From a virus (taxonomy: Duplodnaviria; Heunggongvirae; Uroviricota; Caudoviricetes): a DNA stretch of 4,921 bases. The notes beneath the pieces are model-generated. The model did not search any database. It had not been told where the DNA came from and was given only the letters and a program-made list of their open reading frames with translations. The stretch spans positions 1 through 4,921 of IMG/VR virus record IMGVR_UViG_3300029471_000044. One strand, 5' to 3'. Both the position numbers and the translations under genes were made by a program. Of this stretch, positions 1-4,921 are shown piece after piece (positions within the stretch are counted from its first letter, which is position 1; each line of letters opens with the position of its first letter).

Positions 1-90
1 GTAGTTTTTTCTGAATTTATCCAGCACCTCCGATACGGAATTGCCGGAACAGCGGCGCGCGTCATCCGCACCATACAGAGGCGCTGGCAT
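1..90 (-). CDS. Hypothetical protein, N-terminal 30 codons only (continues past the left edge)
   Basis: ATG at 90-88 preceded by SD GGAG (complement of 97-100) with 6-nt spacing; open frame to position 1 giving MPAPLYGADDARRCSGNSVSEVLDKFRKNY...; starts 16 nt after the exonuclease stop. Confidence 0.5.
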   Translation of the reverse strand, partial: MPAPLYGADDARRCSGNSVSEVLDKFRKNY

Positions 91-106
91 GGTTTTCTCC
101 TGTTGA

Positions 107-655
107 TTATTTAGCTAACTTTTTCCAGATCGCTGAAACGTATTTGGCTTGGTGAATGGCATCATCAAGCGCGTTGTGGCGAGTTCCTTTGAATGGCATA
201 TCTCGCTTAGGGTCGAATCCTATTACCTTCCCAAGTTCGACGATTGTTCTTACGTCGCGGTCATTCCACCACTGCCACGGAACTGGCTGCCCTGTCAGCG
301 AATAACTGTTTCGGAGAATAACGCAGTCAAATGATGCTCCATTCCCCCAAACCTGAACGAATTTGTGGTTAGCGTTCTTTATGATGAATTCAGATAACCA
401 TGAAAGAGCCGTTGAAAGCTCCTGAGTGTTGCTGGTTAGCGATTTTCTGGCTTCTTCACTCTGTTCCAGCCACCATAAAATCGTTGAAGCGTCAGGACGC
501 GCTCGATATCGCATTGATGATTCAAGCGAGATATTTACCGAGAACTCTTCTCCTGTTTCTCCGGTATTCGGGTCAAAGAATACCGCCCCAATAGAAATAA
601 CTGGCGCGTATGGCCCGTTGCCCATTGTTTCAAGGTCAACCATTAAGTGATTCAT
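107..655 (-). CDS. DEDDh-type 3'-5' exonuclease (DnaQ/RNase T-like fold), phage exonuclease
   Basis: 182-aa ORF. Motif I MVDLETMG (D-x-E) at the N-terminus, motif II VWGNGASFDCVIL (Asp), motif III HNALDDAIHQAKY (His-x4-Asp) near the C-terminus. ATG 655-653 with SD AAGGA 5 nt upstream; stop TAA 107-109. Confidence 0.85.
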   Translation of the reverse strand: MNHLMVDLETMGNGPYAPVISIGAVFFDPNTGETGEEFSVNISLESSMRYRARPDASTILWWLEQSEEARKSLTSNTQELSTALSWLSEFIIKNANHKFVQVWGNGASFDCVILRNSYSLTGQPVPWQWWNDRDVRTIVELGKVIGFDPKRDMPFKGTRHNALDDAIHQAKYVSAIWKKLAK

Positions 656-663
656 GTAAGTCC

Positions 664-1142
664 TTAAATTGCGTGAATAGCGTGACGAGGGAAGGGGAGA
701 GTTACTGGCTCCTCGTCTGGGTAGATAGGTTTGTTATGTTTGTGCCACTCGACATGACATGACTTGCAGAGCCACATCACATCGGTTGGTTTGCTGTAGT
801 CGCAGTGGTGCGCCTGTGGTTTACATTCTGATCCGCAGCACTCACATTGTGGTGGTCGGATTAGCTTACCGTCGCGCAAAAAATTACCCACGATGATGTG
901 GGCTTTTCTTTTCCATGGGTTGCTCTGAATGAACCGCTTTTTGGCTGCGTTACACCGTTCTCTGCCGCGTTCCGATGATTGATATTCTCTCCTTGCTGAT
1001 ACTCGATGTGGCAATCCCGCGCGCTCTTTGTCATATTCAGCCAGGCAAGCCCGGCAAGCGGCAGTTAATCCATCTCTGGATGCTCTTCTGATTTGAAAGT
1101 CCCTTTCTTCCTNNNNNNNNNNNNNNNNNNNCAGATTTTCAT
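664..1142 (-). CDS. HNH endonuclease, interrupted by a 19-N run (1113-1131); start and frame across the gap uncertain
   Basis: ORF-track product 664-1014 carries an HNH-like core (CECCGSECKPQAHHCDYSKPTDVMWLCKSCHVEWHKH: His-His, then LC-x2-CH, flanked by Cys pairs). The same frame stays open with no stop from 1014 up to the N-run (...EERDFQIRRASRDGLTAACRACLAEYDKERAG-). A strong start context, AGGAGC-N5-ATG (ATG 1142-1140), sits just beyond the N-run but is out of frame if the gap is taken as exactly 19 nt. Stop TAA 664-666. Confidence 0.65.
1113..1131. other. Run of 19 N (unknown or masked sequence) inside the HNH gene
   Basis: Directly visible in the sequence. Confidence 1.
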
Positions 1143-1151
1143 ATTCAGCTC

Positions 1152-1625
1152 CTAGAACGGAATATCCGAATCGTCGAAGTTCATAGGTGGTTCGCTGTGA
1201 TTTCCATGCTGCTGAGGTTGCTGTCTTTGTTGATGACCATTATTTCGCTGAGGTGAAGACTGTTCATTGCCTCCTTGCTTGCCACCAAGCATTTGCATGG
1301 TTCCACCAACGCCCACGATGACTTCGGTAGTGAACCTATCCTGTCCGCTTTGATCCTGCCATTTTCTTGTCCGCAATTTTCCTTCAAGATAAACCTCAGA
1401 GCCTTTTCGCAGATATTCGCTGGCAATTTCTGCCAGTTTCCCGCTCATTACCACGCGGTGCCACTCCGTCTGCTCCTTTTGCTCTCCAGTTTGCTTATCA
1501 CGCCATTGTTCTGACGTAGCAACTGTAAGGTTTGCAAATGCCGTTCCTGATGGTGAATATCTGATTTCTGGATCATGCCCAAGGCGACCAATAATGATCA
1601 CCTTATTTACGCCTCTGCTTGCCAT
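1152..1625 (-). CDS. ssb: Single-stranded DNA-binding protein (phage-encoded SSB)
   Basis: 157-aa ORF. N-terminus [23 protein letters not shown] and motifs [58 protein letters not shown] closely match E. coli SSB as I recall it; Gly/Gln-rich linker and acidic tail ending DSDIPF. ATG 1625-1623, stop TAG 1152-1154. Confidence 0.95.
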
Positions 1626-2333
1626 TTATGCCGCCTGTTTTAGCTCGTTAACTCTGATGTTCATTACCTGAACGCATTTAGCCTGCGCCTCCTCGTTTCC
1701 AGCCATTAATTGCCAGTCATGCTGATAACGCTCGATGAGTTTTTTCTTGTCAGTTTCTGTCGCTGCATAATCGCTGAAGTCTTTCAGGATTTGTTCGCAG
1801 TCAACCGATGGAGATTTCTGGTTGGTATTTTCTGGTGATGGTTTGTTATCTGATGCTGGGATTGCCCATCCCGGCAGCGATGGAGGGAGCCAGTAAAATC
1901 CTGTCCCATCCTTCAGTTTTGCCCTGTGCCACCCCTGCTTTTTATCGAGAGATGTTTGTGCGAAACCTTCCTCAAGGTTATACAGATACCGACCGATTCC
2001 CCATTGAACGGCAGCGCGCTTCATTGCGCCGGAACGACCACCTTTGACTGCTTCTACCTGCGTGTTTTCAGCAGCATCCCATTTGGTTACCCATTCGGAA
2101 TCAATCTTTATTGATATGCCGCATTCAACGCCGCCGTTGTTGGGAATATCGCGGTATTCATTGCGCCATCCTGCTTTGCCGCAAACATCGTCCAGGCGTT
2201 TCATGATTGCCCGGTTCGTGACATAAGCCAGCACCATAGCCCACACTTTGCCATCGCGTGTTTTACCGCTTTGCTGTATTCGCCATTCGATATCTTCAGG
2301 GCTGAATGGCTCATCGAATTTGTTCAAATCCAT
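1626..2333 (-). CDS. Single-strand annealing protein (recombinase) of the Rad52 superfamily (Sak/Erf-like)
   Basis: 235-aa ORF. Contains the signature blocks I associate with Rad52-like phage SSAPs: ...AYVTNRAIMKRLDDVCGKAGWRNEY... and ...GAMKRAAVQWGIGRYLYNL.... ATG 2333-2331 with SD GAGGTG 4 nt upstream; stop TAA overlaps the SSB start region. Confidence 0.8.
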   Translation of the reverse strand: MDLNKFDEPFSPEDIEWRIQQSGKTRDGKVWAMVLAYVTNRAIMKRLDDVCGKAGWRNEYRDIPNNGGVECGISIKIDSEWVTKWDAAENTQVEAVKGGRSGAMKRAAVQWGIGRYLYNLEEGFAQTSLDKKQGWHRAKLKDGTGFYWLPPSLPGWAIPASDNKPSPENTNQKSPSVDCEQILKDFSDYAATETDKKKLIERYQHDWQLMAGNEEAQAKCVQVMNIRVNELKQAA

Positions 2334-2341
2334 AATTCACC

Positions 2342-2597
2342 TCAGAATGGACATGGCCCAAGGAAATAACGCTGATTTAATACTTCAGTCTTTGCCGCAT
2401 TCAAAAATACGCGAACACCTTCACGATCTCCCTTCTGGCGATANNNNNNNNNNNNNNNNNNNTGCGTGTACATGCGCCTCTGTAACTTGCTCTCCTTCAC
2501 TGTGGTTGCAAGTGACATGAATATCTCCTTCGTTACCGATTAATTCTTTCATCTGACGAATGAATTCTTCGTCTGAACAGTTATCTGTAAAACTCAT
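2342..2597 (-). CDS. Small hypothetical protein in the kil-like position, interrupted by a 19-N run (2444-2462); true C-terminus uncertain
   Basis: ATG 2597-2595 (alternative GTG 2612) opens MSFTDNCSDEEFIRQMKELIGNEGDIHVTCNHSEGEQVTEAHVHA up to the N-run. Taking the gap literally the frame stops at 2421. A second frame past the gap is open for 33 codons (YRQKGDREGVRVFLNAAKTEVLNQRYFLGPCPF) to TGA 2342-2344, which overlaps the SD of the SSAP gene; this is in frame if the gap is 20 nt. The SD for ATG 2597 is poorly spaced. Confidence 0.4.
2444..2462. other. Run of 19 N (unknown or masked sequence) inside a small CDS
   Basis: Directly visible in the sequence. Confidence 1.
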
Positions 2598-2685
2598 TTC
2601 CTGCGATACCACGGAATGTTGATCGCTGATTTCATCGCTTTATTTGCTTCAAGCCACATTTTGGAATCACCAATAAATCTGGCTA

Positions 2686-2865
2686 TTACTGCTTTGTTTT
2701 GTGCTGCACGAAGCATCTGGTGATTGATGGATATTTCATTGCGCATAACGCCTCCAGTTGTTTCTTTGCTGCTCTGATTAATTGTTTAACTCGGCGTGAT
2801 AATTCAGATTCGTGCGGGTAGAAAGCGGACATGACGCCGCTACCCGCGAGCTGAAAGTGCATCAT
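2686..2865 (-). CDS. Small protein resembling lambda CIII (FtsH-inhibitor/CII-stabilising peptide family), 59 aa
   Basis: ATG ATG at 2865-2860 preceded by a strong SD AAGGAG (complement of 2872-2877) with 6-nt spacing; the ORF-track TTG start at 2916 has no SD. Product MMHFQLAGSGVMSAFYPHESELSRRVKQLIRAAKKQLEAL... parallels lambda CIII as I recall it (AG-x-PV..P-SESLLERITRKLRDGWKRLIDIL): AG, P-x-ES-L, then a basic amphipathic helix. Sits directly upstream of the kil-position ORF and the recombination genes. Confidence 0.6.
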   Translation of the reverse strand: MMHFQLAGSGVMSAFYPHESELSRRVKQLIRAAKKQLEALCAMKYPSITRCFVQHKTKQ

Positions 2866-2948
2866 GGGTAACTCCTTATATTTGATTGCATAACGAAAAT
2901 GCCTCTCGTGAAGCATTATTGGTATGCGGTAAAGCCGCGCTCAGGCGG

Positions 2949-3197
2949 CTACTCTATTTCTTCTTCGAATGATTTTATTAGTCGGTCAATAACATCATCC
3001 GTTTCAATATCATTTCCGTCTGATTGCTTTAATACATCTATTGATTCTGCAGCGGTAAATTCCATCGCTGTGAGAAACTCGACAATTGCACACTCAACGA
3101 CATATCGTTCTTCATCTGTACGACATGAGATAAAAGAGCATTTAATTGCTGTTATTACTTTTTGTTTAAGCTCTGCAGGGTAATCAGTTTTTATCAT
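2949..3197 (-). CDS. Hypothetical strongly acidic small protein (82 aa)
   Basis: ATG 3197-3195 with SD GGAG 6 nt upstream; stop TAG 2949-2951. 20 Asp+Glu against 9 Lys+Arg, with an acidic C-terminus ETDDVIDRLIKSFEEEIE. First gene after the terminator at 3211-3239. Confidence 0.7.
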   Translation of the reverse strand: MIKTDYPAELKQKVITAIKCSFISCRTDEERYVVECAIVEFLTAMEFTAAESIDVLKQSDGNDIETDDVIDRLIKSFEEEIE

Positions 3198-3210
3198 CGT
3201 TTACTCCGTC

Positions 3211-3239
3211 AAAAAAAACTGCCCTCACATTGGAGGGCA
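3211..3239 (-). terminator. Rho-independent terminator on the minus strand
   Basis: Minus-strand RNA: UGCCCUC-CAAUGU-GAGGGCA (7-bp stem 3220-3226/3233-3239, 6-nt loop) followed by G and eight U (complement of the A8 run 3211-3218). Lies between the 156-aa gene and the acidic 82-aa gene. Confidence 0.75.
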
Positions 3240-3300
3240 AAGAAGATTTCCAATAATCAGAACAAGTCGGCTCCTGTTTAGTTACGAGCGACATTGCTCC

Positions 3301-3328
3301 GTGTATTCACTCGTTGGAATGAATACAC
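3301..3328. repeat. Perfect 9-bp inverted repeat GTGTATTCA-N10-TGAATACAC
   Basis: 3301-3309 is the exact reverse complement of 3320-3328; located 15 nt downstream (in transcript sense) of the stop of the 156-aa gene and about 60 nt upstream of the terminator hairpin. Confidence 0.6.
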
Positions 3329-3342
3329 AGTGCTTATTTGTA

Positions 3343-3813
3343 CTAATAAAATACCCAATTTTCTGTTTCTTGGTTGTGTCCAAAGTTATATTCAATATCT
3401 GGTGTTGATGTATCAATATTCTTCATCCCATCAACAAGAGTTGATACAACAGCCAAATCTTGTTTGATTCTCATCAAATGGTATTTCTTCCGGCGCAATA
3501 AACTTTCAATGGCAAGTTTCTTCGTCGGGAACGCAAAAGATCTTTCTGCATTTTTTGCTACTTTCTTAATTGCATATCTATTTCTCCTTTGTTTCCATTC
3601 CTGTAACCACTGATTTGGTGCTGGTTTAAAATTAACAATCCAATGCGCAGGAACCAACCATGCATAATGCTCTGTCTGATGAAAAGCTATATATTGAAGT
3701 GCGAATATTTTTATCCCATCTTCTTCAACTGTCGCCTGGAATCTCCAGAAAACAGGCATTCCCTCATGTTCAGTTTCTGATTCAGGAAAAGGTACGCTCC
3801 ATGATTTTGTCAT
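3343..3813 (-). CDS. Hypothetical protein (156 aa), function unknown
   Basis: Long minus-strand ORF; ATG 3813-3811 lies 3 nt after the stop (TAA 3817-3819) of the upstream gene, suggesting translational coupling. Stop TAA 3343-3345. No motif I can recognise. Confidence 0.75.
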   Translation of the reverse strand: MTKSWSVPFPESETEHEGMPVFWRFQATVEEDGIKIFALQYIAFHQTEHYAWLVPAHWIVNFKPAPNQWLQEWKQRRNRYAIKKVAKNAERSFAFPTKKLAIESLLRRKKYHLMRIKQDLAVVSTLVDGMKNIDTSTPDIEYNFGHNQETENWVFY

Positions 3814-3816
3814 ATA

Positions 3817-4098
3817 TTACTCATCTCCAAGGGCTTTGCTGATTGCTGACTGTGCTTTCGATACTTCATCAGGATAATGGTCATTCCAGTTTTGCTTGTA
3901 TGCCTTGTTTAGCATCGCTTGCAGTGCTTCAAGCAAATCAGGAGCTGCTGCTATCAGTAGCGCATCCTCCCTTTCATTTCTTGTTGCTGCTTCAATGTAT
4001 GTGTCACCAATCGTCACACCATGGAACGTAGTCATCATCTCGTTGACGTTTCTAACCGTGTACTTCCATTTACCAGGCGTACCCTTAAACTCTTTCAT
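3817..4098 (-). CDS. Hypothetical protein (93 aa) with conserved-looking LLIAAAPDLLEAL segment
   Basis: ATG 4098-4096 preceded by AGAGGTGG 3-5 nt upstream; the ORF track begins 2 codons earlier at GTG 4104. Stop TAA 3817-3819. Confidence 0.7.
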   Translation of the reverse strand: MKEFKGTPGKWKYTVRNVNEMMTTFHGVTIGDTYIEAATRNEREDALLIAAAPDLLEALQAMLNKAYKQNWNDHYPDEVSKAQSAISKALGDE

Positions 4099-4137
4099 AT
4101 CCACCTCTGTTGTTTATGCCAAAAATAAAGGCCACCA

Positions 4138-4338
4138 TCAGGCAGCCTTGTTGTTCTGTTTACCAAGTTCTCTGGCAATCATTGCCGTCGTTCGTATTGC
4201 CCATTTATCGACATATTTCCCATCTTCCATTACAGGAAACATTTCTTCAGGCTTAACCATGCATTCCGATTGCAGCTTGCATCCATTGCATCGCTTGAAT
4301 TGTCCACACCATTGATTTTTATCAATAGTCGTAGTCAT
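4138..4338 (-). CDS. Hypothetical small Cys-rich protein (66 aa), possible zinc-ribbon-like C-x5-C-x2-C-x5-C
   Basis: ATG 4338-4336; weak SD (AGGA, 8-nt spacing); Cys at residues 11, 17, 20, 26; stop TGA 4138-4140. Confidence 0.6.
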   Translation of the reverse strand: MTTTIDKNQWCGQFKRCNGCKLQSECMVKPEEMFPVMEDGKYVDKWAIRTTAMIARELGKQNNKAA

Positions 4339-4408
4339 ACGGATAGTCCTGGTATTGTTCCATCACATCCTGAGGATGCTCTTCGAACTCTTCAAATTCT
4401 TCTTCCAT
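4322..4408 (-). CDS. Candidate micro-ORF, 28 aa, extremely acidic (MEEEFEEFEEHPQDVMEQYQDYPYDYDY)
   Basis: ATG 4408-4406 preceded by SD GAGGTG with 4-nt spacing (complement of 4413-4418); stop TGA 4322-4324, overlapping the start of the 66-aa gene by 17 nt in another frame. Below the ORF-track size cutoff, so coding status is unproven. Confidence 0.3.
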   Translation of the reverse strand: MEEEFEEFEEHPQDVMEQYQDYPYDYDY

Positions 4409-4462
4409 ATATCACCTCAAATAAGTTGTTTGCTGCGAAAGTAAATACGCTTAAGTTACCTG

Positions 4463-4600
4463 TTATTTATTCCACCAAGTTCCGTATCTATCTATCCAGT
4501 TACACCAATCATCGACACTCCATTTTGTTGTGTCGCATTTTGGCAACTGGCATGAATATCTACCTTCTTTGTAAAGTCGGCGTTTGACTTTCTTGAGCAT
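4463..4600 (-). CDS. Candidate small protein (45 aa), Cys-containing
   Basis: ATG 4600-4598 preceded by SD GAGGTG with 4-nt spacing (complement of 4605-4610); product MLKKVKRRLYKEGRYSCQLPKCDTTKWSVDDWCNWIDRYGTWWNK; stop TAA 4463-4465. First ORF downstream of the terminator at 4717-4741. Confidence 0.4.
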   Translation of the reverse strand: MLKKVKRRLYKEGRYSCQLPKCDTTKWSVDDWCNWIDRYGTWWNK

Positions 4601-4716
4601 GGCTCACCTCAATCGTAATAAGCTGGAATTGATTTTCCGCGTTGCTTCTGGCGGCCTGAGCAGGTCACACCCATTTCACTGCGTGGCTTGCTGTAATAAA
4701 TTCGGTTAGTTCAGAC

Positions 4717-4741
4717 AATAAAAAACCCACCGAAGCGGGCT
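4717..4741 (-). terminator. Rho-independent terminator on the minus strand, overlapping the stop codon of the upstream partial ORF
   Basis: Minus-strand RNA: AG-CCCGC-UUCG-GUGGG-UU then UUUUAUU; 5-bp core stem (4726-4730/4735-4739, one G-U pair) with a UUCG tetraloop, extendable to 7 bp, followed by a U-tract (complement of AATAAAAAA 4717-4725). Confidence 0.6.
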
Positions 4742-4919
4742 ATGACCATTTTTTATTTGGATTTCGTTGGTGAGCGTGATTAACAACTCTGTGCATTACA
4801 TCCTCATATTTTTCATCTTCAATTTTTTCGACATCGCGAGGAAATGGTGTTGCTAATGCTTTGTCAACTTTATCCATTGGGTCTTCATTAATCTTATATT
4901 CAGGACCGTCATCTATAGC
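4740..4919 (-). CDS. Hypothetical acidic protein, C-terminal 59 codons only (5' end beyond the right edge)
   Basis: Frame open from the window edge to TAG 4740-4742 (...AIDDGPEYKINEDPMDKVDKALATPFPRDVEKIEDEKYEDVMHRVVNHAHQRNPNKKWS); same strand as the rest of the operon, with a terminator straight after its stop. Not in the ORF track because no start codon is inside the window. Confidence 0.45.
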   Translation of the reverse strand, partial: AIDDGPEYKINEDPMDKVDKALATPFPRDVEKIEDEKYEDVMHRVVNHAHQRNPNKKWS

Positions 4920-4921
4920 AT

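Follow-up and report, generated by a model that had tools for sequence, protein, structure and literature searches.

In phage P22, the gene ral of the early-left (pL) operon is directly followed by orf78 (Y8K6; family PF27050, phrog_1273), which is tightly coupled to the next gene, orf87, coding for a protein of 67 amino acids (aa). In 933W, H-19B, and most Shiga toxin (Stx)-converting phages, a gene for a 156-aa protein (L0079 in 933W) lies directly after N; the 933W gene has its own GAGGTGAGAT ribosome-binding site (RBS) and no PF27050 gene upstream, and it is followed by a block containing PreS and the terminator tL2a. The same block is found in the ral-ea10 interval of lambda, where PreS (LPR1) is an Hfq-dependent small RNA (sRNA) of ~88/68 nucleotides (nt) whose 3' end is tL2a and which activates dnaN translation (bioRxiv 10.1101/2024.10.31.621285; lambda only). 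Here, we describe a locus that has features of all three, located in a 4,921-nt stretch of a Caudoviricetes record (IMG/VR IMGVR_UViG_3300029471_000044, positions 1 to 4,921; referred to here as the window), the minus strand of which is occupied by the pL operon of a lambdoid prophage. Two adjacent genes downstream from ral, coding for proteins of 93 aa (geneA) and 156 aa (geneB), had been considered in an earlier reading made from the sequence alone (the sequence-only reading) as a translationally coupled module and a candidate for defense or anti-defense. Our analysis favors, with moderate confidence, a different origin, i.e., two independent, non-essential accessory genes juxtaposed by mosaic recombination in a slot of the pL operon between N/ral and PreS/tL2a.

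Comparison with lambda, P22, and 933W

The elements of the window on which this comparison is based are as follows.

4138..4338, minus strand: ral (restriction alleviation), upstream neighbor and left anchor of the slot (PF11058 Ral, E=1.6e-48; phrog_1055)
4128..4149, minus strand: terminator-like hairpin and T-run overlapping the ral stop codon, found by scan; same sequence after ral in lambda
3817..4098, minus strand: geneA, 93-aa PF27050 (Phage_P22_Y8K6 / XkdD-Y8K6) protein, recombinant; Shine-Dalgarno sequence GAGGTGG at 4107-4101
3814..3816, minus strand: 3-nt spacer TAT between the geneA stop and the geneB start
3343..3813, minus strand: geneB, 156-aa protein (933W L0079 / phrog_1636, 99% identity) with a basic core and acidic termini
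3211..3335, minus strand: block aligning at 96.8% identity with the region between ral and ea10 in lambda, with ~3298-3211 as PreS (LPR1) by homology
3211..3240, minus strand: terminator homologous to lambda tL2a (stem 3240-3219 and T-run), 3' end of the PreS-like sRNA and right border of the slot

The layout seen by the sequence-only reading was correct in its main lines. The two open reading frames (ORFs) are only 3 nt apart (TAA at 3819-3817, TAT, and then ATG at 3813-3811), the lambdoid pL context next to ral (PF11058) is confirmed, and the pair is indeed found between two terminators, i.e., hairpins with T-runs at 4149->4128 and 3240->3219. The terminator scan of positions 2900-4921 gave four sites, compared to 1.6 +/- 1.4 in shuffled sequences. 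Both ORFs are real genes, since geneB is intact with a low pN/pS (ratio of nonsynonymous to synonymous polymorphism) and the fold of geneA is predicted with confidence (see below). The start of geneA is likely ATG 4098, which gives 93 aa, because all its homologues begin with MKEFKG and GAGGTGG is located 2 nt upstream; the alternative GTG at 4104 would give 95 aa.

Compared to lambda, both genes constitute an insertion of ~770 bp at the exact place where, in lambda, only ~10 nt separate the ral-stop hairpin from the PreS block. The flanks of this insertion are homologous in the two, including PreS and tL2a: what comes after the ral stop (tggtggcctttatttttggcataaa...) is lambda sequence, and so are the 125 nt downstream from geneB, with 2 differences in ~32 nt at the hairpin (counted by eye) and 121 of 125 identical nt in the PreS/tL2a block (84/88 over its last 88 nt). 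By homology, positions ~3298-3211 would correspond to PreS. This region folds better than shuffled sequences (z=-6.2), and an Rfam scan of the window returned no family. A 19-nt PreS signature marks the distal end of the slot in each of the 18 loci of the E. coli, Shigella, and lambda types examined, whereas the loci from Pectobacterium, Rosenbergiella, and metagenomes lack it. Together, these comparisons delimit a variable accessory-gene slot, bordered by N/ral and, at its other end, by PreS/tL2a, which contains, depending on the phage, nothing (lambda), geneB, geneA-type genes plus other cargo, or both. The position after ral in the early operon is shared by the PF27050 genes of P22 (ral-orf78-orf87-17), Sf101 (ral-0034-0033), and the window (ral-geneA-geneB), while geneB is found directly after N in 933W, APEC O1, and GDSC2239PM and directly after ral in phi367. 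No complete E. coli genome matched 80% or more of the window, indicating a strongly mosaic prophage.

A separate observation concerns phage mEp213, in which the stretch 1922-4416 contains two different N antiterminator genes and two PreS signatures (3001-3019 and 4398-4416), as if the N-to-PreS slot had been duplicated in tandem with different contents.

Linkage and recombination of the two genes

To describe the association of the two genes, we used the 762-bp pair region as query. It matched 683 E. coli records, from which an evenly spaced sample of 60 was taken. In ~46 of these, only geneB was matched and the homology stopped 2 to 10 nt upstream of its ATG; three rows had geneB plus the last 135 nt (3' end) of geneA, and ~8 had nothing but fragments of geneA. 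In ~80% of the ranked sample of matching E. coli records, geneB comes directly after N and has an RBS of its own. Not one complete E. coli genome covered the entire query, and the ~680 of 5,426 complete E. coli genomes that match the region do so mostly via geneB. The exact geneB protein was found on 567 contigs versus 15 for the exact geneA protein. Among 12 loci fetched through geneB, 7 of them from Pectobacterium, Brenneria, and Rosenbergiella, none had a PF27050 gene nearby (up to 3 to 4 kb on each side, less at contig ends). As for PF27050 genes, they abut at least eight unrelated downstream genes, namely, those of P22 (orf87), Sf101, mEp213, Bas106, HC6, a Proteus phage, BUCT618, and an Acinetobacter phage (the last one ParB-like), and the reversed order, geneB and then the PF27050 gene, occurs in Bas106, Dewey, and DEC9B. 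The dedicated two-gene module proposed by the sequence-only reading is not upheld by these data. Because geneB is usually solo, the partners of geneA-type genes vary, and the order reverses, the pair appears to be a young mosaic block rather than a conserved unit, and the association is not obligate.

The sequence of geneA itself retains a trace of this process. Bin-wise DNA identity showed it to be a hybrid, with its first 180 nt (4098-3919) 100% identical to the Bas106/mEp213 allele. The allele of sequence type 131 (ST131) prophages, which has a different N-terminal domain and the same 3-nt spacer to geneB, is 93% identical to geneA in nt 151-180 and 100% identical from ~nt 181 to the stop codon (3918-3817). 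This places the crossover at ~nt 150-180, within the AAPDLLEALQ codons, so that the conserved motif also serves as a joint for homologous recombination.

The 93-aa protein and family PF27050

Neither product had been recognized by the sequence-only reading, but both turned out to belong to catalogued, if uncharacterized, families. geneA is a member of Pfam PF27050 (Phage_P22_Y8K6) according to precomputed hits for a 100% identical protein (P0034) and for all the listed homologues; the local Pfam scan used a copy without the PF27050 model. Its relatives are called "XkdD/Y8K6 family phage-associated protein" in PGAP, and, by this family name, PF27050 also includes XkdD of Bacillus PBSX. geneA and P22 orf78 both fall in phrog_1273 (3.8e-26 and 1.2e-15, respectively), and a hidden Markov model built from geneA homologues matches orf78 at 1.3e-08. 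The family is very large, since a profile search gave 5,723 or more protein clusters (E<=0.001), in phages of Enterobacterales and Acinetobacter, and the range of geneA relatives extends to phages of Proteus, Providencia, and Acinetobacter and to virulent siphoviruses of E. coli and Salmonella.

The segment that the sequence-only reading had singled out as a conserved motif, LLIAAAPDLLEAL (residues 47-59), proved to be the most conserved element of this family, with A52, P53, L55, L56, and L59 invariant in the alignment. The AlphaFold model of this small, acidic protein (pI 5.3) is confident (predicted local distance difference test [pLDDT] of 87) and consists of a small three-stranded sheet (strands at 11-37) followed by a helical hairpin (helices at 40-89) that bears the AAP[DE]LLEAL motif. 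P22 orf78 shares with geneA the short N-terminal beta domain, AAP[DE]LLEAL, and the helix ending in KALG(E/K)E, although their N-terminal domains and inter-helix segments have unrelated sequences and the downstream partner in P22 is orf87 and not the 156-aa gene. The C-terminal KALGE is maintained in phages ranging from those of E. coli to those of Acinetobacter. Literature searches on this family yielded no description of a function for any of its members.

Two patterns considered for the geneA homologues were discarded. An invariant N terminus with a hypervariable C terminus was partly an artifact of ranking, as the same C terminus also occurs with different N termini; both halves of these proteins are exchangeable. 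Nor does the variable segment track the downstream gene, since a single variant, KAYKQNWNDHYP, is found ahead of five or more different genes.

The 156-aa protein and its relatives

geneB is 99.4% identical to L0079 of 933W (AAD25424.1) over all 156 residues, and the same identity applies to its counterparts in H-19B, BP-4795, Min27, Stx2 phage 86, and dozens of further Stx phages. Its match to phrog_1636 extends from end to end (1-156 of 156, E=7.3e-112), and its close family is confined to prophages of Enterobacterales (33 hits). An exhaustive profile search extended this family to a distant superfamily of ~140- to 150-aa proteins (phrog_13631 and phrog_25384, both of unknown function) sharing the core K(R/K)IxK..SRFAFxTKExA..RKxxQLxHLKRDL and a C-terminal Y-x-F-D/E tail. 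All the relatives are named "hypothetical protein" or "prophage protein" in their sources, and the single locus obtained for a distant one consists of a series of small, unknown genes.

geneB was intact in each of the 12 E. coli-type copies that we examined, with a pN/pS of 0.03 to 0.08, and is thus under strong purifying selection. Its GC content is 36.7%, versus 44% for the window, and low GC is typical of accessory cargo. The charge distribution described by the sequence-only reading was confirmed: residues 61-125 constitute a basic central region (17 K+R versus 4 D+E, pI 11.1) between acidic termini (pI 5.1 for residues 1-60 and 4.1 for residues 126-156), in a protein with an overall pI of 9.1, a helix-rich core, and seven Trp residues. 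The C-terminal tail is conserved as YNFGHNxETExWxF. Since the basic helix-rich core, the seven Trp residues, and the acidic-aromatic tail fit such a role, geneB would be a nucleic-acid-binding early protein, with its pI-11 helical core binding DNA or RNA and the tail docking onto a partner protein.

Regarding residues 140-156 (window 3343-3396), close and distant relatives all end in aromatic-x-Phe-Asp/Glu/Tyr after a poorly conserved linker. The end is ETENWVFY here and Y-x-F-D in distant members, and it resembles a docking peptide. We also considered the segment K(R/K)IxK..SRFAFxTKExA as a beta-beta-alpha DNA-binding unit like those of AP2 or integrase arms, but the scans gave no AP2 or Arm-DNA-bind signal; the AlphaFold2 model of this segment is not confident.

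Translation and expression

The sequence-only reading had also proposed that the two genes are translationally coupled. This is plausible for the window, where geneB has lost its own RBS and starts 3 nt after the geneA stop. Stand-alone copies of geneB carry ...TTTGAGGTGAGAT-ATG, with a strong GAGGTGAGAT RBS of their own. At the junction of the window and the ST131 prophages, the last codons of geneA are found instead (CTT GGA GAT GAG TAA TAT ATG), and only a GGAG is left inside them, 11 nt upstream of the geneB ATG. With its own RBS replaced, only this distant GGAG available, and the geneA stop so close, geneB would be translated here by termination-reinitiation, coupled to the termination of geneA. 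A similar arrangement was observed in all 11 PF27050 genes examined, in which the C-terminal Leu-Gly-Glu/Gly codons hold a GGAG or GGAGG 5 to 11 nt before the start of the next gene. Their 3' ends (CTG GGA GRN GAA TGA TG) mostly overlap the following gene as ATGA or TGATG, or else stop and start are at most 3 nt apart, and the next gene differs. Part of the C-terminal conservation of PF27050 may derive from this dual coding and regulatory use.

A consensus scan of the minus strand between 2900 and 4921 detected no sigma-70-like promoter, although a weak or non-canonical one could escape it. Transcription of both genes would start at pL, depend on N antitermination, and be confined to lytic growth. 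Given the location in the pL operon and the lack of a promoter-like site, expression is probably lytic and not lysogenic, which argues against a role in superinfection exclusion or prophage defense.

Function searches and alternative explanations

Local scans of both proteins against Pfam, NCBIfam, and PADLOC gave only noise. With PADLOC-DB v2, geneA had no hit and geneB only Cas1_II (E=0.018, 12 bits), also noise, and a permissive Pfam scan of 42 members of the geneB superfamily found no recurrent family. Searching the PDB by sequence, with each protein alone or with profiles, gave no hit below E=0.05. No homology or fold match giving a function was obtained for either protein, and literature searches on L0079 turned up nothing on function. 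A toxin or antitoxin domain was likewise not found above noise in Pfam, NCBIfam, or PADLOC. Genomic position is what makes the pair a candidate for a defense or anti-defense role. The resemblance to Ral and the other small anti-restriction proteins of the operon consists of neighborhood, small size, accessory status, and low GC, with no sequence or fold similarity detected either to them or to other characterized anti-defense proteins (Ocr/ArdA-type mimics, Tad/Acb-type sponges). For phi367, a carrier of geneB, a DefenseFinder scan in the literature listed only anti-restriction-modification (a methyltransferase and Ral) and Gam, indicating that geneB does not belong to a known anti-defense family.

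We regard it as unlikely that the two products work together as a dedicated two-component defense or anti-defense module. Apart from the 3-nt spacing, the loss of the geneB RBS at the junction, and the proximity of ral, a known anti-restriction gene, this possibility draws on linkage data that also weigh against our own interpretation as two independent genes. The exact 93-aa allele is followed by geneB in all eight places shown (24 contigs read), with varied flanks, and the 3' half of geneA and geneB are linked in ST131 prophages too, so that the products may interact functionally in these lineages. Also against our interpretation, adjacency in both orders could reflect more than a common small slot, and geneB has no Pfam, NCBIfam, PADLOC, or PDB sequence match behind the functional part, which we infer. 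However, recent common descent alone would yield the pairing of identical alleles, and a dedicated module is difficult to reconcile with a geneB that is solo in the majority of its carriers and in all the genera sampled outside E. coli, with geneA-type genes that pair with so many unrelated genes, with the reversed order in Bas106 and DEC9B, and with the absence of a PADLOC hit. A type II toxin-antitoxin-like or abortive infection pair, in which the acidic upstream protein (pI 5.3) would neutralize the larger basic downstream one (pI 9.1), seems very improbable. Gene order, sizes, charges, and coupling do resemble the type II layout, but the putative toxin is maintained, intact and under purifying selection, in hundreds of genomes where the putative antitoxin does not accompany it, the scans detected neither a toxin nor an antitoxin domain, and the pair has no promoter of its own that we could detect and lies in a pL location repressed in lysogens.

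The conserved 3' end of PF27050 genes suggests another explanation, also improbable in our opinion, by which geneA would be mainly a portable leader cistron, a well-translated small ORF whose last codons (..CTG GGA GRN GAA TGA TG) provide an RBS and a stop/start junction for any cargo. The GGAG or GGAGG placed 5 to 11 nt before a differing next gene in 11 of 11 family members, with stop and start overlapping or at most 3 nt apart, and the KALGE C terminus maintained from E. coli to Acinetobacter phages are what one would expect from it. Nevertheless, the conservation at the protein level (W11, AAPELLEAL) and the confident fold point to a function of the protein itself, and tight stop/start packing is common across phage early operons and unspecific to PF27050. 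More speculative, and to be taken as a long shot, is that PF27050 proteins are modular adaptors, with the beta domain and the inter-helix segment swapped independently, whose gene is always coupled to a variable cargo (here L0079) with which they would form two-part counter-defense or host-takeover devices. If true, the XkdD/Y8K6 family would serve diverse phage effectors in general, as their partner or chaperone. Under the interpretation that we favor, two independent accessory genes brought together in the slot, geneA would act separately from geneB, as a small protein-binding adaptor, and the most likely role of both would be in host takeover or counter-defense during lytic growth, rather than in protection of the lysogen.

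Other genes in the window

Leftward, the order of genes is two small ORFs, ral, geneA, geneB, an 82-aa acidic protein, a 76-aa ORF, and a 50-aa ORF. In near-identical loci, cIII and Kil are annotated near the position of the last two. Further left lies a recombination module (window 107-2333, minus strand) formed by a Rad52/Erf-like annealing protein, SSB, an HNH endonuclease, and an Rv2179c-like 3'-5' exonuclease, which differs in type from the exo/bet/gam of lambda. The sequence consists of N (masked or unresolved) for 19 bases at 1113-1131 and again at 2444-2462, one of these runs being located between the HNH and SSB genes and the other in the small-ORF region upstream from the Rad52/Erf gene, where it breaks the ORF calls. 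The 82-aa protein (2949-3197, minus strand), encoded just after tL2a, is very acidic (pI 4.3) with a GC content of 35% and has no Pfam family, but along its entire length it matches phrog_14587, labeled "anti-restriction protein" (E=2e-48). By this annotation, it would be a better-annotated anti-defense candidate than either geneA or geneB.

Implications for lambdoid phages

The adjacency of geneA and geneB is a case of ordinary lambdoid mosaicism and not a new two-part system, the two genes being already in catalogued families, and as such it is nothing surprising for this group of phages. The useful results are organizational, i.e., the definition of the borders of the slot (N/ral and PreS/tL2a) and of conserved coding motifs as recombination joints. 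Both families are common and wholly uncharacterized, and a function for either of them would annotate very many genes.
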